A stretch of DNA of 36,620 nucleotides from Alphaproteobacteria bacterium (GCA_024279575.1 JAJRRJ010000045.1:1-36620), one strand, 5' to 3'. Shown: positions 10,717 to 33,398, counted from the first letter of the stretch. The notes: generated by a model not told the origin, from the sequence alone. Numbers and translations are program-made.

Positions 10717-10843
10717 ACGTTGCTCCGTCAGGACCATTAAATTGGCCTGTCCCTCACCCCAAACATACATCGCACTTAAAAACAGAAACAAGTGACTTGT
10801 TCAAAGCATCGGGTTAATTGCTTAACGGCTATTCAAAAGCCAA

Positions 10844-12260: not shown

Positions 12261-13694
12261 TCAGGCCAACCCGAACCATTTCGCAGCCAAACCTAAAAAC
12301 ACGAAAAAACCAACTACGTCAGTAACAGTTGTTACAAAAGCACTTGAAGCAATTGCGGGGTCAGCACCAAACTTACTCAACCCCAGAGGAATAAGAATGC
12401 CGGACAAACCGGCGGCCAGCATGTTAACAACCATTGCAATTCCGATGACGACACCCAGCGCAAAGCTGGAAAACCAGATGGCTGTAACCACACCCGTTAT
12501 AATTGCAAAAATCACACCATTGACCAGCCCCACCAACGTCTCACGCACAATCAGTCGACGAAAATTGAATTGATCCAGATCCTGCGTTGAAATGGCCAGC
12601 ACAGTTACCGTCATTGCCTGAATACCTGCATTGCCACCCATGGAGGCAACAATGGGCATCAAAACCGCCAGTGCCACCATCTGCTGCAATGTCGCATCAA
12701 ACATGCCAATGACCACAGAAGCAAAAATTGCCGTCACAAGATTTACCCCAAGCCAGGTAACACGCGAACGCACCGCATCCCACACCCCCCCGGAAACCTC
12801 AGCCGCCCCAACCCCGGCAAGGTGAAGAATATCCTCTTCTGCTTCCTGATGGATAACATCAACAATATCATCAATGGTCAAAACACCCACCAGCCTGTTG
12901 GTCTCATCAACCACACCAACTTCCACCAGATCGAACCGCTCAAAAACCCGCGCGGCATCCTCCTGATCTTCCATTGCGTTTATTTCAATGACTTCCTCAA
13001 GCATAATTTGGGAAACAAGTACTTCCCGTTCAACACGAAGAAATTTATCAAGGGGCACGGTGCCGATCAGGGTATATGCCGGATCAACCACATAAAGCTG
13101 GTGAAACTCCTCCGGCAAATCCTCTTCCTTACGCAAATAATCAATTGTCTGGCCCACATTCCAGAATGGTGGAATTGCGATAAACTCACAATGCATCCGC
13201 CGTCCCGCAGAATCCTCGGGAAAATCCAGAGAACGCTTGAGCGACAGTCTTTCAAAGTCGGGGACCAGAGCCAGAATGGCCTCCCGATCCACCTCCTCAA
13301 TATCCTCAAGAATGAAAACCGCATCATCATTGTCGATGCTGGATACGCCACGCGCCACATCAGAATTTGGAAGTTGATCAATCAGTTCAACCCGCACAAC
13401 TTCATCAACTTCTGTTAGCGAAGAATAGTCAAAACTATCCCCCAGATATTTGACCAGTGCCAGCCTTTGTGAACTATTCAAGGCCTCAAGAACATCCCCG
13501 GCATCGGCCTCAGATAACGGTGCGAGTTTTTCCCGCAAGTCCATTTCCGCCCCCGCCTCAATCAGAGCGCTTACCTCTTCAATCCACTTGGCATCCAGGC
13601 GTCCTTCGTCGTCCAGCCAATCAGAATGGCGGGGGCGAATGGCGTGAGATGTTAAGCTGTCCAGGGGGTAATTCATAAAAAATCCGGTACTCAC
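12261..13694 (-). CDS. mgtE: magnesium transporter MgtE
   Basis: Acidic MgtE N-domain, a CBS pair, and a C-terminal 5-TM module with GNAGIQAMTVTV. The start is GTG at 13694. An alternative ATG (MNYPLD) lies 18 nt downstream. Confidence 0.93.
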   Translation of the reverse strand: MSTGFFMNYPLDSLTSHAIRPRHSDWLDDEGRLDAKWIEEVSALIEAGAEMDLREKLAPLSEADAGDVLEALNSSQRLALVKYLGDSFDYSSLTEVDEVVRVELIDQLPNSDVARGVSSIDNDDAVFILEDIEEVDREAILALVPDFERLSLKRSLDFPEDSAGRRMHCEFIAIPPFWNVGQTIDYLRKEEDLPEEFHQLYVVDPAYTLIGTVPLDKFLRVEREVLVSQIMLEEVIEINAMEDQEDAARVFERFDLVEVGVVDETNRLVGVLTIDDIVDVIHQEAEEDILHLAGVGAAEVSGGVWDAVRSRVTWLGVNLVTAIFASVVIGMFDATLQQMVALAVLMPIVASMGGNAGIQAMTVTVLAISTQDLDQFNFRRLIVRETLVGLVNGVIFAIITGVVTAIWFSSFALGVVIGIAMVVNMLAAGLSGILIPLGLSKFGADPAIASSAFVTTVTDVVGFFVFLGLAAKWFGLA

Positions 13695-13828
13695 TCAAAG
13701 CAGATTACCAAAAATCCGCTCATTATCTGAAATAATGGCTACCCATTGCATTCTTTGTTTAGCGGAAAAATGTCAACATTCGTTCAAAATAATTGCAACG
13801 CAACATCGGCTGGAATGTACAACGCAAC

Positions 13829-13856
13829 AAAAAAGGCCCCGCCAATGGCCGGGCCT
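13829..13856 (-). terminator. rho-independent terminator of acs
   Basis: The minus strand reads AGGCCCgGCCattGGCgGGGCCT followed by TTTTT. That is 9 bp of GC-rich stem with one C/C mismatch, 24 nt after the acs stop. Confidence 0.65.
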
Positions 13857-13879
13857 TTGAATAATTATAGCAATCCGTA

Positions 13880-15826
13880 TTATTTATTTTTGCGGTTTTC
13901 AATCAGATCATCAACCACTCCGGGATCCGCCAGCGTCGAGGTATCCCCAAGGTTGGAAAAGTCATCCGCTGCAACTTTACGCAAAATTCTACGCATAATT
14001 TTGCCAGACCGGGTTTTGGGTAAACCAGGTGCGAACTGAATAAAGTCCGGCGTACAAATTGGCCCGATCTCCTGGCGCACATGCATTTTAAGGTCCTTTT
14101 CCAGTGCTTGCGTCGGCTCAACTCCACTCATCAAAGTTACATAGCAGTAAATCCCCTGCCCCTTGATATCGTGAGGATAGCCCACCACCGCAGCCTCTGA
14201 AACTTTAGGGTGAGATACCAGCGCACTCTCAATTTCTGCTGTACCCATGCGGTGACCTGATACGTTCAGCACATCATCCACACGACCCGTAATCCAGTAA
14301 TAACCATCGCTGTCCCGACGACACCCGTCATCGGAAAAATAAAAGCCCTTATATTGTTCAAAATAGGTTGAGATAAATCGCTCGTGATCCCCATAGACCG
14401 TGCGCATTTGCCCAGGCCACGAATCACGAATTGCCAGAACCCCTTCTGCCTCCATAGTAGTGATTTCCTTACCCGTTTCAGGGTCTAGAACCACCGGTTG
14501 AATACCAAAAAATGGTTTGCTGGCCGACCCCGGTTTTGTTGGCGTCGCGGCGGGGAAAGCGGTAATCATTGAGCCGCCGGTTTCCGTTTGCCACCAGCTG
14601 TCAATAACCACACAATTGGAGTGGCCGACCTTTTCATAATACCATTTCCACGCCTCAGGATTAATTGGCTCCCCCACGGTCCCAATAACCTTTAGTGAAG
14701 ACAAATCAGCTTTCTCGACAAACTCATCCCCCGCGCCCATCAATGCGCGAATGGCAGTTGGAGCCGAATGGAAAATATTGATCTTGTACTTGTCCACAAC
14801 ATTCCAGAAGCGCGATGCATCAGGATATGTGGGCACACCTTCAAACATGACTGTTGTGGCCCCGTTGGCCAAAGGCCCATAAACCACATAAGAATGCCCG
14901 GTAACCCAACCAATATCCGCCGTGCACCAGTAGACTTCCCCCTGATGATAATCAAAGTTCATCTGTTGCGCCAAAGAGGCATAGGTGAGGTACCCGCCCG
15001 AGGTGTGTAAAACACCCTTGGGTTTCCCCGTTGAGCCGGAAGTATAAAGAATAAAAAGAGGGTCTTCAGCATTCATCACTTCAGGCTCACAAACGTCTTC
15101 CACCCCCTCCAGGGCATCGTTGAGCCAGACGTCACGCCCAGCAGCCATAGCAATATCGCCGCCGGTATTTTCTACCACCAGCACTTTTGAAACATCCCCT
15201 CCCTTTTCCAATGCGGCATCCACATTGGCCTTGAGGGGAATTGTTTTGCCCGCGCGCCGTCCCTCGTCCGCAGTAATGACAAATTCGGAATTACAATTCA
15301 CGATACGTCCCGACAATGCTTCTGGGGAAAATCCGGCAAAAACCACAGAATGAACAGCCCCGATACGCGCACAAGCCAACATGGCAAACGCCGCCTCAGG
15401 GATCATAGGCAGGTAAATAGTAACACGATCACCCTTTTTGACACCAATGCTTTTGAGAACATTGGCAAGCCTGGAAACACTTTTGTGCAACTCGTTATAG
15501 GTAATTATTCGAGAGGGATCACTTGGTTCATCGGGTTCCCAGATAATCGCAGTTTTATCCCCAAGCGCTTCGAGATGCCGGTCAATACAGTTTGCGCAAA
15601 CGTTAAGTTCACCATCCTCAAACCACTTGATTGAAACATCGGGATATTGAAAAGTAGTGTTTTTTACTTTGGTAAACGGCGTAATCCAGTCCAAACGCAA
15701 CGCCATCTCGCCCCAAAACCCATCAGGGTCGAAAATAGAGCGCGCATACATCTCCTCATATTGCGCCGCCGTGACCAGAGTGTTTTCAACAATGCTTGCA
15801 GGTGGGTTGTAAATCTTGCGTTCCAT
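13880..15826 (-). CDS. acs: acetyl-CoA synthetase (acetate--CoA ligase)
   Basis: 648 aa. The N-terminus has [17 protein letters not shown]...[20 protein letters not shown]. The AMP motif is [12 protein letters not shown]. The C-terminal [15 protein letters not shown] is typical of Acs. Confidence 0.97.
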
Positions 15827-15896
15827 TTCCCGTATGTCCTCAGATTTTAGGCCGTTGTCGTTCAGGGCAACGCGCGCTGCTTATTAAAGTCTTGAA

Positions 15897-16640
15897 TCAG
15901 ATAGCCAGATATTCATGCCGAAGTTGTTCATTTTCAAGCACTTCTTTTGCAGTCCCAGAGAAAGCAACTTCTCCCGTGTCCAGAATAACCGCGTGATCGG
16001 CCAGCTTCAACGCAGCTACCGCATTTTGCTCAACGATAATTGTTGTTATTCCAAGTTTCTTGATTTCCCTCAATATTTTTTCAATTTCCTGCACGATAAC
16101 CGGCGCCAACCCCTCATATGGTTCATCCAAAAGCAAAAGCTTTACATCGCGCGAAAGAGCACGGGCAAGCGCCAACATCTGCTGTTCGCCACCAGATAAG
16201 GTGGTGCCATCCTGTTTTCGTCGTTCACCCAGACGTGGAAAATGCTCATACACCTCCTCCGCCGACCAACCATGCCCCGGCGCAACCTGGGCAAGAAAAA
16301 GATTTTCTTCCACCGTCAGTCCCTGAATAATACGACGATCCTCTGGCACCAGCTGCACACCGCCAAGGGCCGCCTCGTGCGTCTTCATATTATGTAACGC
16401 CTGGCCATCCAGCCAGATTTCACCAGCAGTTACAACCGGATCATCAGTCCTTGCAATCGAGCGCAGAGTTGAGGTTTTCCCGGCACCATTGCGGCCCAGC
16501 AAAGCCAGAATTTTTCCCTCCTCAACGTCAAAAGACACATCTTGAACAATGTAACTTTCTCCATAATAGGAATGTACATTTTTAATGGAAAAAAACGGCT
16601 TGTTTTTGTTTGTCTGTTCACTCTGATCTTCCTGGGTCAT
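15897..16640 (-). CDS. ABC transporter ATP-binding protein (LivF-type, HAAT family)
   Basis: GRNGAGKTS Walker A, LSGGEQQMLALARAL signature, LLLDEP Walker B. It overlaps the upstream ATPase by 4 nt and lies 70 nt upstream of acs. Confidence 0.92.
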   Translation of the reverse strand: MTQEDQSEQTNKNKPFFSIKNVHSYYGESYIVQDVSFDVEEGKILALLGRNGAGKTSTLRSIARTDDPVVTAGEIWLDGQALHNMKTHEAALGGVQLVPEDRRIIQGLTVEENLFLAQVAPGHGWSAEEVYEHFPRLGERRKQDGTTLSGGEQQMLALARALSRDVKLLLLDEPYEGLAPVIVQEIEKILREIKKLGITTIIVEQNAVAALKLADHAVILDTGEVAFSGTAKEVLENEQLRHEYLAI

Positions 16641-17413
16641 TCGTAAGTCCCCCCCAAATATGCTTCTTGAACTTTGGGATCGCCACGCACTTCATCAGGT
16701 GTCCCCTCAGCAATAATACGCCCCTGCGCCAAAACCGAAACTTCATCCGCAAGTGAAAAAACCACATGCATATCATGCTCAATAATAACCTTGGTCATGC
16801 CGCTCGACTTGATCTTTTTAAGCAACTCGATCGTTGTGTTGGTATCATGCCGGGACATACCCGCAGTTGGTTCATCCAAAAGCAGTATTCGCGGTTTTTG
16901 AATAAGGCACATAGCAAGCTCCAGCCGACGCTTATGGCCGCGAGATAATGCTCCTGCGTGAGTATGAATCATTGCATCCAGTCCAAAATCAACAATAATT
17001 TCCTCAGCTTCCCGCGCAATATCCTTTTCGCTTTCAATTGACTTGAACAAATTCATACTAAAGGCACCATCTCGCTTGGCAAACGCCGGAGCCATCACGT
17101 TATCAAAAACCGAAAGCTCCGGAAAAATTTCTGGAGTCTGAAACACACGGGCAATCCCCATTTGATTAATCTCATATGGTGACTTTCCGGTAAGCACTTC
17201 ACCATCGAGTACAACTGTGCCCCGGGTCGGTGGCAATTTCCCAACAATCACATTCAGCAAAGTGGATTTCCCGGCCCCGTTAGGCCCGATGATTGCATGA
17301 GTTGTCCCCTCCTCAAACGCCAGATCAACATCGGCAAGCGCATGCAGGCCTCCAAATGTTTTGTGCACATCTGCCACATGGAGAACAGTATTATGTGAGG
17401 ATTCAACCATCAT
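16637..17413 (-). CDS. ABC transporter ATP-binding protein (LivG-type, HAAT family)
   Basis: GPNGAGKST Walker A, LSRGHKRRLELAMCL signature variant, LLLDEPTAGM Walker B, and a C-terminal VQEAYLG. Confidence 0.92.
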   Translation of the reverse strand: MMVESSHNTVLHVADVHKTFGGLHALADVDLAFEEGTTHAIIGPNGAGKSTLLNVIVGKLPPTRGTVVLDGEVLTGKSPYEINQMGIARVFQTPEIFPELSVFDNVMAPAFAKRDGAFSMNLFKSIESEKDIAREAEEIIVDFGLDAMIHTHAGALSRGHKRRLELAMCLIQKPRILLLDEPTAGMSRHDTNTTIELLKKIKSSGMTKVIIEHDMHVVFSLADEVSVLAQGRIIAEGTPDEVRGDPKVQEAYLGGTYE

Positions 17414-18579
17414 TATTCTCCCTTTTCTGAACTTGGTTTTGGCATGTTTTCAGGGTCGACCACTTCCTGGTCTTTAGTGGGGTCCTTTCTGCGTAAAAAC
17501 CAGCTTGAAATCCGCCTCACCCCTTCCATGATGCCGCCAGGCAGGAACACAACCACCAGAACAAACATCGAACCAAGGGTTAAGTGCCAGCCTTCGCCAA
17601 CAAACTTGGAGGAAATCAGCACCACGAAGCCCTCTATATTATCAGGCAGGAAAGCAAAGAAATTGTGCAATATGCTCTCGTTCCAGGCGGAGAAAATATT
17701 CTCAAAATACTTGATAATCCAGGCGCCAATTACTGGGCCAACCAGTGTGCCAACTCCCCCAAGAATAGTCATAAGAACCAATTCGCCAGAAGCCGTCCAC
17801 TGCATACGCTCAGCCCCCGCCAGCGGATCAGTTACAGCAAGAAGTCCACCCGCAATTCCCGCATACATGCCTGAAATAACAAAAGCTGTCAGCATATAGG
17901 GCTTGGTGTTAAAGCCGGTATAGTTCATGCGGTCTTCGTTGGATTTTATACCCTTAAGCATCATGCCAAATGGGGATGATGCAATTTTTTGAGCAATAAA
18001 AAATCCGATCAGTAAAATCACCGCACAGAAATAAAACCCCTCATACCCATTCATTGGAATACCAAAAAGGCTCGAAGTTGGCAGAGAAACACCGCGCTCC
18101 ATAAACATCAGGTCGATTGTTCTGGGGTCCTGCAAAGTCAATTGCAACCCGTTTTCACCATGGGTAATAGGGCTGAGAACTGAATAGGCGAGTTTATAAC
18201 TCATCTGAGCAAATGCCAGCGTGAGGATTGAAAAATAAATGCCGGAACGTCTCAGGGAAACATAACCGATCGCCAGAGCAAATATACCGGAAAATATCAT
18301 CGCACAGGCCAGTGCCAAAATCGGGTTCATCGACAAAAGCTTAAACGACCAGACAGCCGCATAAGAGCCGACTCCCAGAAAGGCTGCATGGCCAAAGCTG
18401 AGATAACCGGTCAAGCCAAACAAAATATTATAACCAACTGCCAGCAATGCATAGATTGCAAACTTTTGCAGCAATCCAGGGTAAGACGCACCAAATGGAC
18501 TTAACCAGATAGGCATGGTCAGAACAACGAGGGCAAACAGCAAAAACGTAATGGCGTCTTTTTTGGGAATACTAAACAT
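17413..18579 (-). CDS. ABC transporter permease (LivM-type)
   Basis: 388 aa, polytopic, with [16 protein letters not shown] typical of LivM-type permeases. Confidence 0.9.
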
Positions 18580-18580
18580 C

Positions 18581-19609
18581 TTAATTCTCCATCACGCCAC
18601 GTTTGCCCAGCAAACCACGAGGGCGCACCAGCAGAATAATAACTGCCACCAGATAAATAATGACCTGATCGATTCCGGGAATAATGTCCTTAACCTCCGT
18701 CATTGACGCAAGGGACTGAACCACGCCCAGCGTGAAACCAGCCAGAACTGCGCCCGGAAGCGAGCCCATACCACCCACCACCACAACGATGAATGTAAGA
18801 ACCAAAAAGTCCATACCAAGCGTGTAATCGGGCGGCAAAATCGGTGTGTACATCACACCGGCAACCCCGGCAACAACCGCAGCAATGCCGAACATAATGG
18901 TGAACCTTCTATCTATATTGATGCCTAGCATCGAGACGGTTTCCCTGTCCGACATGCCGGCCCGTACAACCATACCAAATGTGGTAAATCGTAAGAAAGC
19001 AAAAACAGCCCCGATCACCCCAAGAGAGAAGAACAAATAGACTAATCGCCATTTGGGGTAAGTTATAACATGTTCTGCCATTCCAACCATTACACCAAGA
19101 TCAGCAGCCCCCATAAACACCTGAGGTATCGGCTGAGGATTGGGGTTTGCACCAAAAAATGCCTTTACGATTTCCTGTAAAACAATCGCCAGCCCAAACG
19201 TCACCAGAATTTGTTCGGCATGGGGGCGCTTGTAAAAATGTTTAATCAGGCCTCGCTCCATTACAATGCCAATAAGCAACATGACGGGAATAGCCAATAA
19301 TATTGAAAGCGGTACCGAATAGTCGAGCAACACATTACCAAAATCACCAAACCATTGCTGGGCAAATGGCGTGCGGATTTCAAGTGGTGTCCCCCAGGGG
19401 GAAAGTTCGGTTTCGCTCAGAACCACTTTTTCAAGTGTCAAAATTTTACGGAATGTCACGGCACAAAACGCACCGATCATGAACAAAGCGCCGTGAGCAA
19501 AATTCACAACACCAAGAGTGCCAAAAACAAGGGTCAGCCCCAAGGCGATCAGCGCATACGCTCCGCCTTTATCAAGACCATTAAGGACCTGCAAAATTAC
19601 CGCGTCCAT
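18581..19609 (-). CDS. ABC transporter permease (LivH-type) with an insertion of about 50 aa after TM2
   Basis: N-terminus [48 protein letters not shown]. At 342 aa it is longer than the 291-aa LivH-type paralog at 33399-34274. The extra segment is [34 protein letters not shown]. Confidence 0.9.
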
Positions 19610-19644
19610 ATTTCCCCCCCGCTATGGAAAAAGTTGAGTTAAGT

Positions 19645-19672
19645 TATCGGAGCGACGAATGTCGCTCCGATA
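19645..19672. other. perfect 12-bp intercistronic stem-loop between the binding-protein gene and the first permease gene
   Basis: tatcggagcgac-gaat-gtcgctccgata, read directly from the sequence. It sits in the 95-nt gap between 19609 and 19705 and has no adjacent U-tract. Confidence 0.6.
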
Positions 19673-19704
19673 TGATTATTGATATTTTATTGTGCAGGTC
19701 TTTA

Positions 19705-21048
19705 CTAAACTTCGTAAGGACCAAGCTCACCACCAAAGATTGAAGCATCATACTCAACCTGAGAACGGGGAACTTCCTGCACAACTTCAAGAAGATCAAA
19801 TTGTGACGTTGGATTTTGATTACCACGCACCACAAGAACATCTTTGAAACACTGGTGATCTTCAGCACGATATTCAGTTGGACCATTGCCCATGCCATCG
19901 AACTTGTGACCTTCAAGCGCCTTGATAACTTCAGGCGGATAAAGAGTGCCAGCACGCTCGCACGCATCAGCATAAAGCAATGTCTGCACATAGCATGTAT
20001 GAGCTGCCTGAGATGGCGGGAAGCCATATTCAGCACCAAATGACTTAACAAAAGCTGCTGAACCAGCATTTTGCAGTGACCAGTTCCAGTTTGATGTACC
20101 AAGAATACCCTTGATGTTTTCACCGGCACCCTGCGCCATAAGACGTGAGAACAAAGGCACAATAATCTCGATATTTTTACCATTTGCCTGACGATCACGA
20201 AGACCAAACTGAATAGCCTGAGTCAGCGAGTTCACCATATCCTTGCCATAGTGGTTCAAAACAACAACATCAGCACCGGAGTTTAGAATTGGTGTAATAT
20301 ACTGGCTGAAGTCACCGGCACCAACTGGTGTCAGAACATTTTTTTCAGTTTCCCAACCAAGTGCTTCAGTAGCATTTTGGATTGATTCCTGTTGTGTCCA
20401 GCCCCAGTTATAATCAGCTGTCAGGTGATAGGCGCGACGATCATTGCCATATTCGTCTTCCAACACAGGCGCTAACGCTGCACCGGACATATAGGCATTG
20501 AAGAAATGTCTAAAGCCATAGCGCTTTTTATCTTTACCCGTTGTATCATTTGAGTGGGTAAGACCTGCCATAAAGATCGTGCCCATTTCCTGACACAGCG
20601 CCTGCACCGCAACCGCCACACCAGAAGAAGAACCACCAGTAATGATCAAAGCACCATCACGTTCAATCATGCGGCGCGCACTGTCGCGGGCGGCGTCTGA
20701 TTTGGTTTGGGTGTCGCCGGTAACATAGGTAACTTTTTGACCTAAAATACCGTTACCTTTAAGATTAGATGGTTGCATAGTATTCAGCATGCCGCCATCA
20801 CCTTCACCGTTCAGGTGTTTTACAGCAAGTGTATAGGCGCGCAGTTCGTCGGCACCCTCATCAGAATAAGGGCCGGTTTGCGGTACGTTAAAGCCAAGCA
20901 CCACGTCCCCACCCTTGGGGTCATTGCGGAATTCCTGTGCCCAGGCACCCTTGGTAAAAACCATTGGTGCGACACCGGCAGTGAATAAGCCTGCAGCGCC
21001 GGTCTTAATGACCTTGCGCCTGCTTATGTCTTTCTTCTGATCGCTCAT
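19705..21048 (-). CDS. periplasmic substrate-binding protein (Liv/HAAT-type fold) with a twin-arginine signal peptide
   Basis: The N-terminus is MSDQKKDISRRKVIKTGAAGLFTAGVAPMVFTKGAWAQ (Tat-like RRKVIK plus an AxA site). It is 447 aa, has a strong SD (AGGAGG 6 nt upstream) and is the first gene of the ABC-acs operon. The ligand is unknown. Confidence 0.88.
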   Translation of the reverse strand: MSDQKKDISRRKVIKTGAAGLFTAGVAPMVFTKGAWAQEFRNDPKGGDVVLGFNVPQTGPYSDEGADELRAYTLAVKHLNGEGDGGMLNTMQPSNLKGNGILGQKVTYVTGDTQTKSDAARDSARRMIERDGALIITGGSSSGVAVAVQALCQEMGTIFMAGLTHSNDTTGKDKKRYGFRHFFNAYMSGAALAPVLEDEYGNDRRAYHLTADYNWGWTQQESIQNATEALGWETEKNVLTPVGAGDFSQYITPILNSGADVVVLNHYGKDMVNSLTQAIQFGLRDRQANGKNIEIIVPLFSRLMAQGAGENIKGILGTSNWNWSLQNAGSAAFVKSFGAEYGFPPSQAAHTCYVQTLLYADACERAGTLYPPEVIKALEGHKFDGMGNGPTEYRAEDHQCFKDVLVVRGNQNPTSQFDLLEVVQEVPRSQVEYDASIFGGELGPYEV

Positions 21049-21201
21049 AGCGTTCCTCCTCGTGAAAAGAATGTGACCACGCCAGAACCTCCCCTAGCAT
21101 CCCACACAAACTTAACTGTTGCCCAAATATGAAAACCAACGCAATAGGCGCTTGTTTTTTAATGTAAAATTTGTCAATGCTTTTAGCAAAAGGTTACTTT
21201 T

Positions 21202-21219
21202 TTGTAAAAACCTTTACAA
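21202..21219. promoter_or_regulatory. candidate operator: inverted repeat TTGTAAA-N4-TTTACAA in the divergent promoter region
   Basis: A perfect 7-bp inverted repeat is read directly at 21202-21219. A related half-site, tgtaaaatttgtca, lies at 21163-21176. The site is in the 196-nt gap between the binding-protein gene and the regulator gene. It resembles TTTGCAAA-type RamB boxes as I recall them. Confidence 0.3.
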
Positions 21220-21244
21220 ACTAAAATGGGAAAACACCTCAGTT

Positions 21245-21835
21245 ATGCGTGCGCCAATTGGACTAAGAATTAGGAACTACCGGAAAATCAAGGGCTTATC
21301 CCAGTCAAACCTGGCTAAATCCATATCCATTTCCCCCTCTTATCTGAACCTGATCGAAGCCAACAAAAGAGATGTAGGGGGAAAACTTTTACATTTGTTG
21401 GCTAAGGAGCTGGATGTAAACCTTCATGACCTCACTGGAGAATCTGAAACACGCCTCATAAATGAGTTGCGCGAAGCATTTGCAGACCCGCTACTGGCTT
21501 CCTTAAACCTGACCCATGAAGATGCCCACCTGATCGTGGCGCAGTTGCCTCAAATGGCCCGCGCCCTGCACACATGCTATCGGGGATACCTCGATGCAAG
21601 CGCCTCGGCAAACGCTTTGGCAAACCGGCTTGATTCAGACCCCCTGTTTTCCCAGCTTCTGCACCAGATGCTATCCCAGATCACCGCAATTCGTTCAACA
21701 GCTGAAATCCTGCGCGATGTGCCGGATATGGAGCAGGGTCAACGTATCACTTTTGATACTTCTGTTTTTGAACAAAGCCGCTCGCTAACGGATGTTGCCC
21801 GCTCCCTGATCGCCCAGTTCGATCAAGATGTGTAA
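21245..21835 (+). CDS. N-terminal fragment (XRE-type HTH) of a ScfR/RamB/PrpR-family short-chain acyl-CoA regulator, ended by an in-frame TAA
   Basis: IGLRIRNYRKIKGLSQSNLAKSISISPSYLNLIEANKRDV is an XRE HTH. The ORF track opens at TTG 21119. The first ATG is at 21245. The stop at 21833-21835 is in the same frame as the next ORF. Confidence 0.75.
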   Translation: MRAPIGLRIRNYRKIKGLSQSNLAKSISISPSYLNLIEANKRDVGGKLLHLLAKELDVNLHDLTGESETRLINELREAFADPLLASLNLTHEDAHLIVAQLPQMARALHTCYRGYLDASASANALANRLDSDPLFSQLLHQMLSQITAIRSTAEILRDVPDMEQGQRITFDTSVFEQSRSLTDVARSLIAQFDQDV

Positions 21836-21928
21836 CAGCACCACTCTTCCTCCCCGCTACGCGAAGTCAATGATCTTATTATCGGTGAAAACAACTACTT
21901 CCCACGCCTCGAAGATGCCGCCGCAAAA

Positions 21929-22804
21929 ATGAGCGAGGGATATGGCCTCAAAACACCACCCAATGAAGACACACTGCGCCATTTACTATCGGTTCTCCAT
22001 CATGAGGCCGATACAGACCCGCTTGAAACAAAGCCTGAGGGGGATGAACACGGCAACCAAAGTAGCATACTTGATCAAAAAAATGATTTGCCCCTGGCGC
22101 AGGCAACCAGACGCTTTCAATTGGCCCGAAAAATTGTCGTGCTAAACTGCCATACCATTCTCAGGGAAATGATCGATGACCCACGATTAACCTCAAGCGA
22201 ATCCAAAGATATCGCGTTCAAAGCATTGACTTCATATTGTGCCGGGGCAGTTCTATTCCCCTATCATAAATTTTTGAAAGACGCGCAACGCTCTTTGTAT
22301 GATGTTGAATATCTGGCGCAGCTATATGGAGGCAGCTTTGAACAAATCGCCCATCGGCTTGTCACATTACGCGCCCCTGCAACCCACGGTATCCCGTTTG
22401 GATTTTTACGCACTGACCCCTCTGGTTTTCTTACCAAACAATTTCCCCTGCCCGGCCTTCTCATGCCCAATGCAGGGCATGCCTGCCCGCTTTGGGTAAT
22501 ATATCGCTCAGCACAATCCCCCAATCAGGTAATGCGGCAGATTGTTTCGTTTACTGACGGCTCCCGCTACCTTTTCATTGCCAAAACATCGATTAAACGC
22601 GTTGAAACATTTAACAATACATCTGTTTTTTCCACGGTGATGCTTGCGTGCAACCTTATTCAGGCTGACCAAACCACTTACGCCACCTCATTGCGCCTTG
22701 ACCAGCCAGAATATGATACACCGGTTGGACCAGCATGCAATTTATGTACGCGCCAACAATGCACACATAGAAACACCCCTATGGCAGCGGCGCAACTGAA
22801 CTGA
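21929..22804 (+). CDS. C-terminal fragment (IrrE-like and DUF2083-like sensor part) of the same ScfR/RamB/PrpR-family regulator
   Basis: YCAGAVLFPYHKFL, GGSFEQIAHRLVTL, GIPFGFLRTDPSGFLTKQF, ACPLW and the Cys cluster GPACNLCTRQQCTHR match the family. The frame is open from 21836 and is identical to the frame of 21245-21835. Confidence 0.75.
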   Translation: MSEGYGLKTPPNEDTLRHLLSVLHHEADTDPLETKPEGDEHGNQSSILDQKNDLPLAQATRRFQLARKIVVLNCHTILREMIDDPRLTSSESKDIAFKALTSYCAGAVLFPYHKFLKDAQRSLYDVEYLAQLYGGSFEQIAHRLVTLRAPATHGIPFGFLRTDPSGFLTKQFPLPGLLMPNAGHACPLWVIYRSAQSPNQVMRQIVSFTDGSRYLFIAKTSIKRVETFNNTSVFSTVMLACNLIQADQTTYATSLRLDQPEYDTPVGPACNLCTRQQCTHRNTPMAAAQLN

Positions 22805-22870
22805 TTTTAGTTGCATCCATTTGCATTAGAGATAACAATTGAGAACCAAAATATTTGAAGGGAGGCAAAT

Positions 22871-23275
22871 ATGAGGGCAATCGGGTCCCCTGATATTCTT
22901 ATTGTCGAGGATGAACCTGCGATTTTGACATCGCTGGAATTTATCCTGCAACACGCAGGCTGGAAAACGCAAACTGTCACTGATGGCGAAGCCGCCATCA
23001 GGGCCGTACAAGTTTTGCTACCCAAAATTATGGTGCTGGACCTGATGCTCCCCAAAAAAAACGGGTTCGAAGTGCTCAAAATCATTCGCGGCCAATCCGC
23101 AACCAAAAACCTGCCGGTTTTAATCCTGACAGCGAAAGGCCAGCAGCAGGACAAACAAACCGCCAAAGAATTGGGTGCCAGCGGATTTGTAACTAAACCT
23201 TACGCCAATACGGACGTAATTGACGCAGTTGCAGATCTCATCGGCACAGTCTCCAAAGCAGACTTAAGCCTGTGA
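22871..23275 (+). CDS. single-domain response regulator (CheY-like receiver, no output domain)
   Basis: VEDE acidic pocket, VLDLMLP phospho-Asp, LILTAKG Thr and VTKPY Lys are all present. Good SD (GGGAGG). 134 aa. Confidence 0.9.
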   Translation: MRAIGSPDILIVEDEPAILTSLEFILQHAGWKTQTVTDGEAAIRAVQVLLPKIMVLDLMLPKKNGFEVLKIIRGQSATKNLPVLILTAKGQQQDKQTAKELGASGFVTKPYANTDVIDAVADLIGTVSKADLSL

Positions 23276-23556
23276 CCAGCCCCAAACAAACCTCTGACAA
23301 GAAAACCTCTGAAACACGTGTGAGAAAATGTAAGTTTGCTGCACTGTTATTACCGATATTGGGTGTCTTGCTGATTATTCCACCACTCGTTTCCATGCGG
23401 ACCACTCAAAACGCAGTTATTTTGGGTATACCTGCCAATATTGCCTATCTGTTTGGCGCGTGGTTGGCGATGATCGTCGGTGCCTATGTCCTTCAAAAGC
23501 TGATGCCCAATGTGCTGACAAGCGCCATCCACGCCAAGGATGACGAAAGTGATTAG
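23272..23556 (+). CDS. small 2-TM membrane protein (DUF3311-like accessory peptide of a sodium:solute symporter domain)
   Basis: 94 aa with two hydrophobic helices (FAALLLPILGVLLIIPPLV and ILGIPANIAYLFGAWLAMIVGAYVL). Its GTG overlaps the receiver stop (GTGA). Its stop overlaps the start of the kinase gene. Confidence 0.55.
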   Translation: MTSPKQTSDKKTSETRVRKCKFAALLLPILGVLLIIPPLVSMRTTQNAVILGIPANIAYLFGAWLAMIVGAYVLQKLMPNVLTSAIHAKDDESD

Positions 23557-26278
23557 CGGGACGCTGGTTTTTGGCACATCCATTGCCTATATCATTTTGC
23601 TTTTTTTCCTGGCCTATATCTCCGACCGAAACGCACGCCTTGGCAAAGGAAAACTACTACGCTCTCCGCTGGTTTTTACGCTTGCGTTATCGGTTTATTG
23701 CACAAGCTGGACATTTTATGGCGCCGTAGGGTCAGCCGCGCGCAACGGCCTGGAGTTTTTTGCAATCTATCTGGGACCAACACTGGTGTTTGTGGGGTGG
23801 TGGTTCGGGTTGCGCAAACTCATCCGCATTGGCCACAAGCAACGTATCACCTCCATTGCAGATTTCGTGTCGTCTCGATTTGGGAAATCCGAGCGGCTGG
23901 CCATTCTGATTACCATCATGGCCGTTGTCGGAATCACACCCTATATTGCATTGCAGCTCAAGGCGATTTCCACATCCCTGCGGGTGATATTAACCGAGTC
24001 CCCAAACGCTGCCCTCCCCCAGAGCGGCGACGAAGTGGGATTGGCATTTGGCGTTGCAGCGGCCATGGCTTTGTTCTCGGTAATGTTTGGCACACGAAAC
24101 ATCAACGCCAACGAGCAGCATCACGGGGTCGTTGCAGCCATCGCCTTTGAGGCAATTATCAAGTTTATTGCCCTGATTGCAGTCGGGTTATTCGTGGTGT
24201 TTGGGCTTGGGGGCGGTTTTGAGGCCACATACGCCCGCGCCCAGGGCGTGGGAGTTTCACTTGATGCTTCAAGCAATTTTGGCCCCCGCTGGATTACAAT
24301 TACAATTTTGTCCGCCGCCGCAATAATTTGCCTGCCCCGCCAGTTCCAGATTACCGTTGTGGAAAATGCCAACGAAAACCACCTCAGAACCGCCTCATGG
24401 GCTTTCCCTCTTTACCTGTTTGGCATTTCCATTTTCACCATGCCCATTGCAATAATGGGGTTGAGTTTACTGCCAGAAGGGGCAGACCCGGACATGTTTG
24501 TTCTCACACTACCCCTCGCCTACGATCAACAGGGCCTCGCTTTATTTGCTTTTATCGGTGGTTTCTCAAGCGCAACCTCAATGATCATCATTGCATCCAT
24601 CGCACTTTCAATCATGATTTCAAATCACATCGTGGTTCCCCTTGCTCTCAGATCTCCAAAAGTATTTGGACTGGAACATGGCCAAGGCATGACACGGCTT
24701 TTGCTTACCAGCCGTCGCGTCAGTATCGGGGCGATCCTGTTTCTTGGTTTCTTATATTTCTGGCTTACCTCCGGTTCCGGCGCCCTTGCCCCGATCGGAC
24801 TGATTTCCTTTGCCGGTGTTGCCCAGTTTTTACCAGCCATATTAGCCGCCCTTTATTGGCGCGATGCTACCGTTAACGGCGCTCTTGCGGGGTTATTGGT
24901 GGGGTTTGCCTTCTGGGCATATACAAGTTTTCTGCCAAGTTTTGGCACGGCCAGTCCAGTCATTACCAACCTGTTGCTTTATGGGCCCTGGCAGCTTGAG
25001 TTTTTGCGACCCCAGGCCCTATTCGGCCTTGAACAGCTGGACCCGTTGGTTCACTCGGTATTCTGGAGCCTGCTGGCAAATTCCATGGCGCTGATTTTTG
25101 TTTCATTTGTCACCCGGAACAACGCCGTAGGCCAATTGCAGGCGGCGCAGTTTGTAGATGTATTCAAACAAACAGAAAACAGCCAATACAGCTTTACGCG
25201 CTCCTCAGCCCCCTTGAATGACTTACTGGTTATGACTCAGCGGGTTTTGGGAACTGACCACGCAAACAGAATATTTGAAACCTATTCAAACTCCGATCGC
25301 ATAAAGCAGAATAAAGACGCCTCCCCTCACTTTATCGCCAGTTTGGAAAAAGAGCTGGCCGGCTCAATTGGCGCAGCCTCTGCCCATGTGCTTTTAGGAC
25401 AGGTTGTATCGGGTGACACCGTCACGCTGGAGGAAGTCATGCAAATGGCTGACGAAACCCAGCAAATTCTGGAATATTCCCAACGTCTTGAGCAGACGGC
25501 AGAAGAACTTCAATCAACAACCCGTCAACTTCAAACCGCAAATAATCAACTGCGCCAGCTTGACCAGCAAAAGGACGAATTTTTATCACAAGTCAGCCAC
25601 GAAGTGCGTACTCCCATGACAGCTATTCGATCTTTTTCTGAAATCCTGCTGACCAATCAGGAGCTGAATGGCACCCAAAAAGAAACATTCATCAACACCA
25701 TCCACGAAGAAAGTATGCGCCTGACCAGTCTTTTAGACGAAATTCTGGACCTTAATGCGCTGGAAAGAAACGAGCAGCTCTGGACCAATGAGCCCATAAA
25801 TCCAAATCTGGCGATTGCCCGCTCAATTCAGGTTTGCACCCCGATTACCGAGCAGCATCAGATGGACGTGCGCCTTGGGGAGCATATCAGACATGTAAAG
25901 GTTGAAGCTAATTTTGACCGGATTTGTCAGGTGTTTATCAATCTTATTTCCAACGCCGCTAAATATAATGATGCGGACCAGCCATTTTTAGAAATCACCA
26001 GCGAAATAACCAAGGCACCTGGAAAACCTGACCAATTACTCATCAGGTTCACCGATAACGGGCCCGGCATATCTTCCATTCACAGCAGCATCATTTTTGA
26101 CAAATTCTGGAGGGGCGCCCGCAACCCTGACACCGCCCAGTCTGGTTCCGGCCTGGGATTGGCAATTTCCAAAGAAATACTCAACCAAATGAACGGATCA
26201 CTGGAACTGGAACTGCCCAGGATCGGCAATACCAAAGCCGGGGCTTGTTTTGCCGTTCGTCTCCCCCTTCATATGTAG
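23540..26278 (+). CDS. sensor histidine kinase fused to an N-terminal SLC5 (sodium:solute symporter) domain, CbrA/CrbS-like
   Basis: The N-terminal ~500 aa are polytopic and resemble CbrA (YCTSWTFYGAVGSAARNGLEFFAIYLGP, RITSIADFVSSRFGKS). They are followed by a soluble STAC-like segment and a coiled coil. The H-box is SHEVRTPMTAI, and the remaining kinase motifs are N-box ISNAAKY, G1 DNGPGI and G2 GSGLGLAISKEI. There is no receiver domain. The start could instead be GTG 23549 (AAGGA 8 nt upstream). Confidence 0.92.
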   Translation: MTKVISGTLVFGTSIAYIILLFFLAYISDRNARLGKGKLLRSPLVFTLALSVYCTSWTFYGAVGSAARNGLEFFAIYLGPTLVFVGWWFGLRKLIRIGHKQRITSIADFVSSRFGKSERLAILITIMAVVGITPYIALQLKAISTSLRVILTESPNAALPQSGDEVGLAFGVAAAMALFSVMFGTRNINANEQHHGVVAAIAFEAIIKFIALIAVGLFVVFGLGGGFEATYARAQGVGVSLDASSNFGPRWITITILSAAAIICLPRQFQITVVENANENHLRTASWAFPLYLFGISIFTMPIAIMGLSLLPEGADPDMFVLTLPLAYDQQGLALFAFIGGFSSATSMIIIASIALSIMISNHIVVPLALRSPKVFGLEHGQGMTRLLLTSRRVSIGAILFLGFLYFWLTSGSGALAPIGLISFAGVAQFLPAILAALYWRDATVNGALAGLLVGFAFWAYTSFLPSFGTASPVITNLLLYGPWQLEFLRPQALFGLEQLDPLVHSVFWSLLANSMALIFVSFVTRNNAVGQLQAAQFVDVFKQTENSQYSFTRSSAPLNDLLVMTQRVLGTDHANRIFETYSNSDRIKQNKDASPHFIASLEKELAGSIGAASAHVLLGQVVSGDTVTLEEVMQMADETQQILEYSQRLEQTAEELQSTTRQLQTANNQLRQLDQQKDEFLSQVSHEVRTPMTAIRSFSEILLTNQELNGTQKETFINTIHEESMRLTSLLDEILDLNALERNEQLWTNEPINPNLAIARSIQVCTPITEQHQMDVRLGEHIRHVKVEANFDRICQVFINLISNAAKYNDADQPFLEITSEITKAPGKPDQLLIRFTDNGPGISSIHSSIIFDKFWRGARNPDTAQSGSGLGLAISKEILNQMNGSLELELPRIGNTKAGACFAVRLPLHM

Positions 26279-26299: not shown

Positions 26300-26821
26300 T
26301 TAGCGGCACTCATCCTTTTTCACCACATTCAAGCCTGTTTTTTGCAAAACAAAATCCGCAATTTTTTGCGTGTCCTGCAAATCAAATTGGGGAATATCCA
26401 TGCTGGGGAAAGTTTTGTCCGATGCCAAAGCCACAACAGTTTCATCCTCCCTTGCAATCAGGTCCTGACCTGACACCGCCAAACTGGTTTCGATTTTCTG
26501 GTGGGTATCCCGCTTGTATCCTTCAATCAAAACCAGATCGCACGGGGTCAGCAATTCAAGCAATGTGCTCAAATCAGGTTCATTCCCCTCACCAACCTCA
26601 TGCATCAATGCCCACCGATGCCGCGACGCCAGTAAAACCTCACCGGCCCCAGCCACCCGATGGCGATGACTGTCTTTTCCCGCGTGGTCAATATCAAAAG
26701 TATGATGGGCGTGCTTAATTGTACTGACAGAAAAACCACGCGCTGAAATTTCAGCAACCAGGCGTTCCATCAACCCTGTTTTGCCAGAGTTTTTCCACCC
26801 AACAACACCAAATATTTTCAT
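26300..26821 (-). CDS. mobB: molybdopterin-guanine dinucleotide biosynthesis adaptor protein MobB
   Basis: GWKNSGKT P-loop, STIKHAHH, DSHRH. 173 aa. It overlaps mobA by 4 nt. Confidence 0.92.
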   Translation of the reverse strand: MKIFGVVGWKNSGKTGLMERLVAEISARGFSVSTIKHAHHTFDIDHAGKDSHRHRVAGAGEVLLASRHRWALMHEVGEGNEPDLSTLLELLTPCDLVLIEGYKRDTHQKIETSLAVSGQDLIAREDETVVALASDKTFPSMDIPQFDLQDTQKIADFVLQKTGLNVVKKDECR

Positions 26822-27456
26822 ACTTCCTCATCCCTGACCAAAGTATTGGCCATCGCCAGATCATCCATCGTATTCACATTAAAAAACGGATCAATTGCCT
26901 GATAGTCAAATACAGCGCTGGAACAGCCATAGGTTTCAGCCCATTGCCCAACCTTGCGTACGCCCCCTGCTAAAGCCTGACGCAAGTCCTGGCGCACTGT
27001 AACAGCCCACAGACCAAAAACAGGATGACGCATCAAACCCTTTTGAGGATCATGCGAAGCTGCAAGAACGATAGGCTGCTTTTGCAAACGCGCACTTTTT
27101 TGCAACTCCACAACCAGATCGCACGGGAAAAACGGCGTATCCACTGCCACACTGACCACATGCGTTGCCCCCTTATTTACAGCCCAGTCCAGGCCCGCAA
27201 GAATTCCCGCCAACGGACCCAAATACCCCTGAATACTGTCTTCTGTCACCTCAAGTCCAAAGTCATTAAACCGCGCCGGATCACCGTTGGCACTGATCAC
27301 CAAAGACTGTACCTGTGGCTGCAACCTCCTAACCACCCGCAAGAGCATTGTTTGCCCCCCAAGATCAAACAGCCCCTTATCCAGGCCATTCTTTGAACGC
27401 CCCATGCGCCGCGCCTGACCACCAGCTAAAATTACTCCAACAGGCTTTTGCGACAC
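26818..27456 (-). CDS. mobA: molybdenum cofactor guanylyltransferase MobA
   Basis: GVILAGGQARRMG motif, GPLAGILAGL, VDTPFFP. GTG start. 212 aa. Confidence 0.9.
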   Translation of the reverse strand: MSQKPVGVILAGGQARRMGRSKNGLDKGLFDLGGQTMLLRVVRRLQPQVQSLVISANGDPARFNDFGLEVTEDSIQGYLGPLAGILAGLDWAVNKGATHVVSVAVDTPFFPCDLVVELQKSARLQKQPIVLAASHDPQKGLMRHPVFGLWAVTVRQDLRQALAGGVRKVGQWAETYGCSSAVFDYQAIDPFFNVNTMDDLAMANTLVRDEEV

Positions 27457-27642: not shown

Positions 27643-28806
27643 CTATTTGCGGAAAACTTCTTTCCAGTTTTCACTTTCAATTACTGAAATCACAATTTCA
27701 TTGGCTCCACTGTGATCTTCAGCCGTGTAGTTCATCTGACCACCCAGAATCTCATCAAAATAGTCCAGGCTTTCCATGCCAGCTCTGAATGTTTCTGAAT
27801 TCAGGTCAGGACCGGCAGCTTCAAGAGCCCGCACCATAACCTCAGCACCTGAACGCCCAAGCAATGCACCGGTGCTTGGAATTTGCTCACCGGATGCTGC
27901 CAGATAGCTCTGCACCCATTCGCCAACAGCAGGGTTGCCCATACGTGGCAAAACATCGGACCATACAGCAGCAGCGTAAAGTCCTTCAGTGATACCACCT
28001 GGGGCCTTGGCCATGACGGAATGGAAACCGGCAGCCGATGAAATAAAGCTTACATCAGTAAAACCGATCTTACCGGCGGTAGCGTAAGCTGTAATTGTCT
28101 GGCGAACGCCAAGAGCCATTGCAACGATCTGACAGTTGGCTTCTTTAAGCTTGCTCAGCGCGCCCACAAAATCCCCATCATCAGGGCGATGGGTTGTTTC
28201 AGCCGCATAAGTCAGCCCCAGTGCTTCTGCTTCATCCATTGCACCTGCTTGAATTTCTTTGCCGAAATCCGATGGAATAAACATGGCGCAAATATTGCTC
28301 GCACCTTTTTCTTCCACAAGGTAGGACACACCGGTTCTGATCTGGTCATAATAGGATGCGCCGGGCGAATAGCGGTAATCAATCGGCTCTTCCACCAGTT
28401 GGCGCGCCATAGTCAACGGAAAGACGTTGGGAATTTGTTTGGATGCCAATAGCGGGAAAGACGCAATATTCATTGGTGTACCCACTCCAAGGAACATCGC
28501 AAACACCTGATCACGGTTAACCAGTTTGTTCAAACCCGACGTCGATTTGGGCAACTGATAGCCATGGTCTTCAACGATGAACTTGATTTGACGACCATGC
28601 ACACCACCGTTGGCATTCACTTCATCAAAATACATTTGTGCAGCTTTTACTGCCGGAGCGCCAAAAGCTGCAAAAATACCGGACAAATCAGTGTTGGAAC
28701 CAATCCTGACTTCGGTGTCCGTCACCCCTTGAGTTTGCGCAAAGCTGCCGCTGGCAAGCAACGCGCCCACGCTAATCGCAGCTGCGAGTTTCAGTAAACG
28801 TTTCAT
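27643..28806 (-). CDS. periplasmic substrate-binding protein (Liv/HAAT-type), Sec signal peptide
   Basis: MKRLLKLAAAISVGALLASGSFAQ signal peptide, with GGGAG 6 nt upstream of the ATG at 28806. The ORF-track start at 28872 would overlap the ligase gene. The mature part looks Peripla_BP_6-like (VRIGSNTDLSG...VNANGGVHGRQIKF). Confidence 0.88.
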   Translation of the reverse strand: MKRLLKLAAAISVGALLASGSFAQTQGVTDTEVRIGSNTDLSGIFAAFGAPAVKAAQMYFDEVNANGGVHGRQIKFIVEDHGYQLPKSTSGLNKLVNRDQVFAMFLGVGTPMNIASFPLLASKQIPNVFPLTMARQLVEEPIDYRYSPGASYYDQIRTGVSYLVEEKGASNICAMFIPSDFGKEIQAGAMDEAEALGLTYAAETTHRPDDGDFVGALSKLKEANCQIVAMALGVRQTITAYATAGKIGFTDVSFISSAAGFHSVMAKAPGGITEGLYAAAVWSDVLPRMGNPAVGEWVQSYLAASGEQIPSTGALLGRSGAEVMVRALEAAGPDLNSETFRAGMESLDYFDEILGGQMNYTAEDHSGANEIVISVIESENWKEVFRK

Positions 28807-28822
28807 GTTAGTCTCCCTTTTT

Positions 28823-30736: not shown

Positions 30737-30745
30737 TGCCACCTC

Positions 30746-33389: not shown

Positions 33390-33398
33390 GGCTGAAAT

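Follow-up and report, generated by a model that had tools for sequence, protein, structure and literature searches.

An ATP-binding cassette (ABC) importer of the HAAT family, encoded next to acs, the gene for AMP-forming acetyl-CoA synthetase, is the subject of this report. It lies within a 36,620-nt stretch of an alphaproteobacterial genome (GCA_024279575.1, JAJRRJ010000045.1), referred to throughout as ‘the window’, and coordinates are counted from the first letter of that stretch. An earlier note, made from the sequence alone, had described six minus-strand genes here: one for a substrate-binding protein (SBP), two for permeases, two for ATPases, and acs. A map of open reading frames (ORFs) finds all six in the places given, and each family assignment is backed by both Pfam and NCBIfam (Table 1). 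Going from the SBP gene to acs, one meets gaps of 95 nt and 1 nt, overlaps of 1 nt and 4 nt, and a last gap of 70 nt; three of these junctions are tight, rather than the four that the note had counted. The 95-nt gap after the SBP gene and the 70-nt gap without a terminator before acs, both described earlier, were confirmed by scans for structure, promoters and terminators, and the scan of the ATPase–acs spacer for promoters and terminators returned no such element. The strong terminator placed 3′ of acs is also there, as a GC-rich hairpin followed by a T-run. We infer that the ABC genes and acs share a transcript. On the opposite strand, across a divergent promoter region, begins a string of four genes for a ScfR/IsaR-type regulator, a receiver-only response regulator, a small membrane peptide and a sensor histidine kinase.

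Table 1. Features of the importer operon and of the divergent regulatory genes, in window coordinates
Feature	Position	Strand	Evidence or remark
Intrinsic terminator after acs: GC-rich hairpin, then T-run	13827..13858	-	Sequence; fold z -3.7
Acetyl-CoA synthetase (AMP-forming), acs, 648 aa	13880..15826	-	TIGR02188 996 bits vs 725; NF001208 1031 vs 657
ATPase–acs spacer, 70 nt, unstructured	15827..15896	-	Minimum free energy -9.8, z +1.1
LivF/UrtE-type ATPase, 247 aa	15897..16640	-	ABC_tran; UrtE 198 bits vs cutoff 286
LivG/UrtD-type ATPase, 258 aa	16637..17413	-	ABC_tran and BCA_ABC_TP_C; UrtD 245 bits vs cutoff 304
LivM/UrtC-type permease, 388 aa	17413..18579	-	PF02653 (BPD_transp_2); UrtC 125 bits vs cutoff 296
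LivH/UrtB-type permease, 342 aa, with subfamily-specific insert	18581..19609	-	PF02653 (BPD_transp_2); UrtB 182 bits vs cutoff 250
Intercistronic hairpin, 12 bp, 3′ of SBP gene, no adjoining U-run	19645..19672	-	dG -27.7 kcal/mol, z -6.4
SBP, 447 aa, Peripla_BP_6 fold, predicted Tat signal	19705..21048	-	Pfam PF13458 at 2e-68; UrtA 53 bits vs cutoff 493
Second conserved box, CTATTGCGTTGGTTTTCA (SBP orientation)	21130..21147	.	Inspection of upstream regions only
Candidate operator palindrome, TTTGTAAA-AACC-TTTACAAA	21201..21220	.	25 nt upstream of regulator ATG, ~150 nt before SBP ATG
ScfR/IsaR-type regulator: HTH_3, M78-like and ScfRs domains, C-X2-C-X4-C; in-frame TAA at 21833–21835	21245..22804	+	Pfam and alignment
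Receiver-only response regulator, 134 aa	22871..23275	+	PF00072 alone; stop overlaps next start by 4 nt
Two-helix membrane peptide, 94 aa	23272..23556	+	Overlaps kinase start by 17 nt
Sensor histidine kinase, N-terminal SLC5-type membrane domain, 912 aa, non-hybrid	23540..26278	+	HisKA and HATPase_c

By sequence, the importer is a member of the HAAT family (TC 3.A.1.4) and belongs to the urea-transporter-like branch of it. The HAAT part list is complete, with PF13458, two copies each of PF02653 and PF00005, and, in one ATPase, PF12399, the LivG C-terminal motif. In NCBIfam, both permeases and both ATPases have their best scores against Urt models, and the SBP has its weak best matches among UrtA models, but all five proteins stay below the UrtABCDE equivalog cutoffs (Table 1). 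Models of the LIV-I system score lower than the Urt models and also fall short: LivJ/K 24 bits against a cutoff of 477, LivH 102 against 379, LivG 201 against 362 and LivF 190 against 441. The proposal that this is an uncharacterised HAAT-family system is borne out, since it lies below all NCBIfam Urt and Liv cutoffs and its nearest solved structures are ~22% identical and have no assigned ligand. With UrtABCDE it has in common the five-part architecture and the SBP fold (TM ~0.8 to UrtA structures); it differs in that its SBP is only ~16–20% identical to those structures, its permease has an extra insert, its locus has no urease genes and its regulators are of the carbon type. The insert, in the LivH-type permease, had been put at about 50 aa by comparison with the paralog in a second Liv-type operon of the window. 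The protein is indeed 51 aa longer than that 291-aa paralog, but in the alignment the main insert is 24 aa (approximately residues 68–91), with smaller gaps elsewhere.

The N-terminus of the SBP reads SRRKVIK ... AWA and has the features of a twin-arginine translocation (Tat) signal (S/T-R-R-x-F/L/V-L/I-K, a hydrophobic stretch and an AxA site). The twin arginines are invariant in 18 relatives, PF10518 is on record for several of the close ones, and the protein is predicted to be Tat-exported. An exact-sequence look-up of the SBP returned no record. An AlphaFold2 model built from a 75-sequence alignment that included representatives of clusters at 50% identity has a pLDDT of 92, with residues 1–42 disordered; an earlier model from 18 close relatives only was poor (pLDDT 66). 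The nearest solved structures by sequence (4MAA, 3I09 and 3N0W) are structural-genomics entries with generic names. In a Foldseek search the same three are closest to the model, at ~22% identity and target-normalised TM of 0.85–0.92, and the next ranks are taken by urea-binding proteins, aromatic-acid binders, LivJ-type proteins and AmiC.

We compared the ligand pocket by profile alignment to E. coli LivJ and LivK, to which the SBP is only 20% identical. Taking the LivJ pocket positions to be Tyr18, Ser79, Ala100-Ala101-Thr102, Tyr150, Tyr202 and Glu226 (numbers and roles from published LivJ structures), the alignment pairs the first five of these with E64, S142, T164-H165-S166, W215 and Y267 of the window SBP, respectively, and sets Glu226 against a gap, with no acidic residue. 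In LivJ, Glu226 binds the ligand amino group, and the lack of a counterpart argues, weakly, against an alpha-amino acid ligand. Elsewhere in the SBP are two invariant H-x-C motifs, AAHTCYVQ and DHQCFKD (H350, C352, H398 and C400), which are confined to the core family; together with Tat export, motifs of this kind could signify a disulfide or a bound metal. One relative, P0126 (449 aa), appears to be recoded throughout, with a surplus of F, V, L and C where the family conserves other residues, and may stem from a gene call made in the source data on the wrong strand or with the wrong code.

The synthetase at the end of the operon is a canonical Acs, and it stays under the cutoffs of the PrpE (propionate–CoA ligase) models. 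Among the larger ORFs of the window there is no other SSS, ActP or SatP gene, in agreement with the earlier observation that an acetate permease of the ActP/SSS type is missing here.

The divergent gene had been assigned to regulators of the ScfR/RamB/PrpR type. Its HTH_3, M78 and ScfRs domains bear this out, but the gene is broken by an in-frame TAA at codon 197, where a close relative (locus L001) encodes Lys. Intact versions in relatives, a 522-aa ORF in L001 and a 529-aa ORF in Neorhizobium, align across the position of the stop, which is either a single-base nonsense change or an assembly error. If real, it would leave a helix–turn–helix-only fragment and, possibly, a 291-aa C-terminal ORF starting at 21929. 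The window regulator has the C-X2-C-X4-C cluster motif, as CNLCTRQQC, and an upstream Cys; the motif is kept by the divergent ScfR-type regulators of other loci, and in PrpR of M. tuberculosis the corresponding Cys residues hold a [4Fe-4S] cluster needed for acyl-CoA binding (PMC6765138). Domains, C-X2-C-X4-C motif, divergent placement and paired AT-rich boxes all liken the window regulator to the known ScfR/IsaR proteins (RamB, PrpR/MccR and PccR). It departs from them in falling into a separate clade, in being stop-interrupted, and in that regulators of its type are invariably followed by receiver, peptide and kinase genes. Against the RamB equivalog NF038139 it scores 202 bits where 700 are required, and over the C-terminal part only.

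Sites of ScfR regulators typically consist of two nearly identical boxes (PMC10370305). By inspection, TTTACAA/TTGTAAA heptamers occur, as palindromes or direct repeats, in most ScfR-bearing intergenic regions, against a background of 0.17 per kb. At the position of the second box, relatives have a palindrome of the CAA-N7-TTG type (e.g. ATCAACTAGGTGTTGAT in Thalassospira).

The receiver, the peptide and the SLC5-fused kinase follow the regulator on the same strand, as had been described. Residues 11–472 of the kinase match the SLC5 domain of P. putida CbrA (PDB 10ED, E 3e-69); we base the SLC5 assignment on the sequence of that structure because Pfam gave no SSF match, even at E up to 1. No PAS or C-terminal REC domain was found by Pfam, and, for a STAC domain, residues 471–677 gave no match to 10ED or to any other PDB chain in a search by sequence only. 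The SLC5 domain is about 40–46% identical to those of plasmid-borne hybrid relatives. Among the SLC5 kinases that have been characterised, CrbS responds to acetate and RpuS to pyruvate, and the genes under their control are acs or that for a monocarboxylate permease (PMC5436829, PMC5715377, PMC9100948). The kinship with CrbS that had been claimed is real, in that the window kinase is a relative of CrbS, CbrA and RpuS and, like that of the CrbS/CrbR (MxtR/ErdR) system, is an SLC5-domain sensor associated with acs. It is not an orthologue, however: CrbS is a hybrid with STAC, PAS and REC domains and has a LuxR-type partner, whereas in the non-hybrid window kinase none of these domains is detected, and the partner is a receiver alone, with no DNA-binding output.

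The peptide matches no Pfam family at E up to 1. Counterparts were found by tblastn in L004, L023 and L081, and it clusters with ORFs of L002 and L003. In the P. putida structure, the CbrX peptide is bound to the SLC5 domain of CbrA (PMC13488458). Because CbrX is small, encoded in an overlap and bound to the SLC5 domain, we regard the 94-aa peptide as its positional analogue. The window genes thus resemble the CbrX–CbrA/CbrB system of Pseudomonas in having a homologous SLC5 domain and a gene for a small two-helix peptide that overlaps the kinase start. They differ from it in that CbrA senses histidine and acts globally via CrcZ, whereas the window system adjoins one ABC operon and its response regulator has no output domain. 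A trio of peptide, SLC5 kinase and receiver-only genes also occurs on plasmid 1 of P. denitrificans PD1222 (624884–631784; L083), with no ScfR or ABC genes; it is flanked by a nucleotidyltransferase-substrate-binding (COG2905-like) gene and an exonuclease-domain gene. The kinase unit appears to combine with different output partners. The supplement to P. denitrificans acetate RNA-seq does not list the neighbourhood of Pden_1785.

The SBP family is very widespread, and its degree of conservation is unusually high. It makes up 7218 clusters at 90% identity with E of 1e-10 or better, and gives at least 596 matches among species-representative genomes; clustering at 50% identity reduces the family to one cluster, with ~200 further, more distant, clusters at E of 1e-30 or better. 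The source names of members are generic. A profile query made from distant relatives led back to this large family, and little could be learned from the gene contexts of such relatives in Haloferax and Bradyrhizobium. Our neighbourhood comparisons rest on the best 80 SBP loci, and the denominators given are loci with enough flank. These 80, 74–98% identical, come from Hyphomicrobiales, Sneathiellales, Rhodospirillales, Rhodobacterales, Gammaproteobacteria (Sedimenticola, Cocleimonas, Thioglobus and Arenicella), SAR324 and Entotheonella. The window is itself from a Devosiaceae-like member of the Hyphomicrobiales; the SBP of L001 is 98% identical to that of the window, and a Neorhizobium plasmid copy is 73% identical. 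Across the loci compared, the five ABC genes are never separated, and the structured gap 3′ of the SBP gene is kept as a family feature (z < -2 in 69 of 78). A structured spacer in this position is the usual means of producing SBP in excess of the membrane components, and the hairpin here probably stabilises the transcript or partly attenuates it, leaving the SBP in excess.

The linkage of SBP, ABC and acs genes recurs in related genomes: of 59 informative loci, 10 have acs directly downstream on the same strand, and these represent at least three lineages (Devosiaceae-type metagenome-assembled genomes [MAGs], Maritalea, Sneathiella and the gammaproteobacterial MAG L069). At the other 49 the two are unlinked. 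A divergent ScfR-type regulator is found more often, at 31 of 70 loci, and a homologue of the SLC5 kinase lies within 10 kb at 34 of 49. Gaps between the ABC genes and acs span 12–212 nt, and 12–70 nt in Devosiaceae-type loci, the shortest being that of L003; the L002 locus ends partway through acs, and in Thioglobus (L064) acs adjoins the ABC operon on the opposite strand. The spacer is longer in Sneathiella, with a TTGACA-like box, and contains a GC-rich hairpin in L019, and acs may, to judge from these spacers, be transcribed separately in both. We sampled three ORFs downstream and two upstream of each locus, 291 ORFs in 225 clusters. The commonest cluster is acs, flagged in 12 loci, and Pfam finds 149 families among 102 flanking-cluster representatives, none with more than three members. 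Amidase, urease, formamidase, PrpE, any other CoA ligase and lactate/glycolate dehydrogenase are not recurrent among those representatives, and acs is the only recurrent metabolic neighbour of the ABC operon. Chance adjacency was considered and rejected because the arrangement recurs in several lineages. The link to acs is real and recurrent, yet accessory, and the regulators are the more constant partners.

Two other signalling arrangements occur beside the same operon. The gammaproteobacterial loci have no ScfR gene, and instead encode a 975-aa SLC5 kinase and an NtrC-type sigma-54 activator, a CbrAB-like pair. In five loci (L006, L009, L016, L020 and L079), a GTTAC-N5-GTAAC palindrome stands exactly 80 nt upstream of a TGGC-N8-TGC sigma-54-type element; the elements lie ~140–310 nt upstream of the SBP gene, and the palindrome has a background of 0.005 per 450 nt. 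A strict sigma-54 pattern was found upstream of no SBP gene, and the looser pattern with the palindrome worked in gammaproteobacterial loci only. The CbrB half-sites of Pseudomonas are similar to the palindrome. Kinase, regulator, palindromic site and sigma-54-type promoter together make these loci resemble the CbrA/CbrB system. In Hoeflea-type rhizobia, the nearby kinase is a CrbS-like hybrid, with an SLC5-like N-terminus, PAS_7, HisKA/HATPase and REC domains. This group comprises Hoeflea and other Rhizobiaceae (L035, L040, L042, L043, L070 and L078). In L035 and L040, at least, ~3.5 kb separates the ABC operon from the kinase gene (1172 aa). This interval contains a gene for a small membrane protein judged by eye to resemble MscL, together with one aminotransferase-like and one hemA-like gene; the figure of the S. 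fredii CrbS/RpuS context likewise includes an MscL gene (PMC9100948). The three architectures differ, and an SLC5-type sensor is common to all of them, which is the strongest sign that sensor and importer handle the same solute.

For this locus we regard as established the gene content, the operon-like spacing, the family assignments, and the conservation of synteny and of promoter elements; the cargo of the importer has to be argued from that context. The reading that we favour, and to which we give about an even chance, is that the cargo is acetate or a closely related C2–C3 monocarboxylate, and that high-affinity import is coupled to activation. It is suggested by Acs being the only recurrent enzyme neighbour, by a regulator family that senses acyl-CoA, and by the acetate and pyruvate sensors among the characterised SLC5 kinases. 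We would add that acetate is isosteric with the urea and acetamide that the nearest named relatives carry. The SBP, exported in folded form via Tat, would bind the solute in the periplasm, and the LivH/LivM-type permeases and two ATPases would import it. In the window’s lineage, Acs made from the same transcript would turn the solute directly into a CoA thioester, forming an uptake-and-activation unit. The divergent promoter would be set by the [4Fe-4S] acyl-CoA-sensing ScfR/IsaR-type regulator, reading the acyl-CoA pool at TTTGTAAA-N4-TTTACAAA, while the SLC5 ‘transceptor’ kinase and the membrane peptide would report the external solute, the kinase phosphorylating the receiver-only protein. 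Since that protein has no output domain, it presumably acts on another protein, for which the adjoining regulator is the obvious candidate, although action on the regulator is speculation. More speculatively, and less likely than not, this may be the first SBP-dependent, ATP-driven importer of acetate (C2–C3 monocarboxylate), derived from the urea/amide branch of HAAT, spread in marine and some soil Proteobacteria, and governed by an undescribed circuit, from SLC5 kinase to receiver to ScfR-type repressor/activator, that merges external supply and internal acyl-CoA at one promoter.

Several points weigh against acetate import. At 49 of the 59 informative loci acs is missing, and the nearest named relatives of the transporter carry neutral urea or amides. 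Glu64, invariant and aligned with a LivJ pocket position at 20% identity, does not obviously favour an anion. An ABC importer followed by AMP-forming Acs is a costly route for a two-carbon unit, and the literature searched yielded no relevant publication on an ABC importer of acetate or lactate. The only SLC5 kinase in the library of solved structures, and the only one compared directly, is CbrA, a histidine sensor. Finally, the regulator is truncated in the window, and control may be altered in this genome unless the TAA is an assembly error.

The importer might instead carry another small organic acid, such as pyruvate, lactate, glycolate, propionate, 3-hydroxypropionate or acrylate, and have acs as a neighbour only through a shared short-chain acyl-CoA regulon. 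The low frequency of the acs linkage would fit this, ScfR-family regulators govern propionate and other acyl-CoA routes besides acetate, and RpuS senses pyruvate; fitness data for Phaeobacter reportedly assign a HAAT-type system to lactate. We nevertheless consider this unlikely: it is canonical Acs, and not lactate/glycolate dehydrogenase, PrpE or another CoA ligase, that recurs, and the short gaps in Devosiaceae-type loci join acs closely to the operon. An importer of urea or a short-chain amide (urea, formamide, acetamide or a similar neutral molecule) would fit the Urt/Fmd/AmiC branch to which the best NCBIfam models for all five parts point, as do the urea-binding proteins and AmiC among the fold matches, and the invariant Glu in the aligned pocket would suit it. 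But every Urt model is under its cutoff, UrtA with 53 bits against 493, no urease, amidase or formamidase gene recurs among the 102 representatives, and around the importer there are acs and regulators of the acyl-CoA and SLC5 carbon types but no nitrogen-metabolism genes, so that such a cargo strikes us as improbable. More improbable still is that the generic database name is right, that an amino acid or a derivative is imported, and that the adjacency of acs has no functional meaning. The kinase’s SLC5 domain is, to be sure, homologous to that of a histidine sensor. The LivJ/K score of 24 bits against 477, the missing counterpart of LivJ Glu226, the adjacency of acs in at least three lineages and the conserved acyl-CoA regulator all speak the other way.

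Such an uptake-and-activation unit would be analogous to the acs–yjcH–actP operon of E. coli, which, as Gimenez et al. are said to have reported (J Bacteriol, 2003), places acetate uptake and activation in one transcription unit. Uptake and activation genes are together in both, and both loci encode a small two-helix membrane protein. In E. coli, however, the transporter is an SSS symporter, whereas that of the window is an ATP-driven, SBP-dependent ABC system, and the window’s SLC5-type domain is a sensor fused to a kinase, with no transporter role. To our knowledge, the known bacterial acetate carriers are all secondary transporters (ActP, MctC and SatP). A second parallel is with clusters in which a HAAT system adjoins an acyl-CoA ligase for aromatic, fatty or dicarboxylic acids. 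These, too, combine a Liv-type importer with an AMP-forming CoA ligase and a cargo other than amino acids (as in the aromatic-acid-binding R. palustris SBPs of structures 4EVQ and 4F8J), but the ligase there is of the long-chain or aromatic type and the SBP belongs to another subfamily, whereas the window has canonical Acs.

All the parts, then—HAAT importer, Acs, ScfR/IsaR regulator and SLC5 kinase—are of known kinds, and Liv-type importers coupled to a CoA ligase are well known where the substrate is an aromatic or fatty acid. We found no description of the specificity of this large SBP family, of an ABC route for acetate, of the regulator–receiver–peptide–kinase module, or of the sigma-54/CbrAB-like control under which Gammaproteobacteria appear to place this operon. 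In marine and symbiotic carbon flow, acetate and other small acids play a major part. A high-affinity ABC route, if true, would alter the conclusions on acetate scavenging that are drawn from genomes and metaproteomes, in which proteins of this family are presently labelled ‘branched-chain amino acid’ transporters. The family is found in hundreds of species, including relatives of sulfur-oxidising symbionts, SUP05, roseobacters and rhizobia. The regulatory module, for its part, offers a tractable case of transporter-like sensor kinases and single-domain receivers feeding a metabolite-sensing transcription factor, and cultured hosts exist in Maritalea, Sneathiella, Thalassospira, Pseudovibrio and Neorhizobium.

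Elsewhere in the window, a second Liv-type operon occupies 27643–34274 on the minus strand. It encodes LivH (291 aa), LivM (365 aa), two ATPases, a 639-aa AMP-binding CoA ligase (AMP-binding_C_3) and a 409-aa SBP, has an SDR gene upstream, and looks like the known kind of organic-acid HAAT system with a CoA ligase. The genes that flank the locus give no sign of a mobile element, and GC is even at 0.46–0.53. They are housekeeping genes: MipZ (9802–10791), which we take to be typical of Alphaproteobacteria, MobA and MobB (26300–27456), and MgtE (12261–13694).

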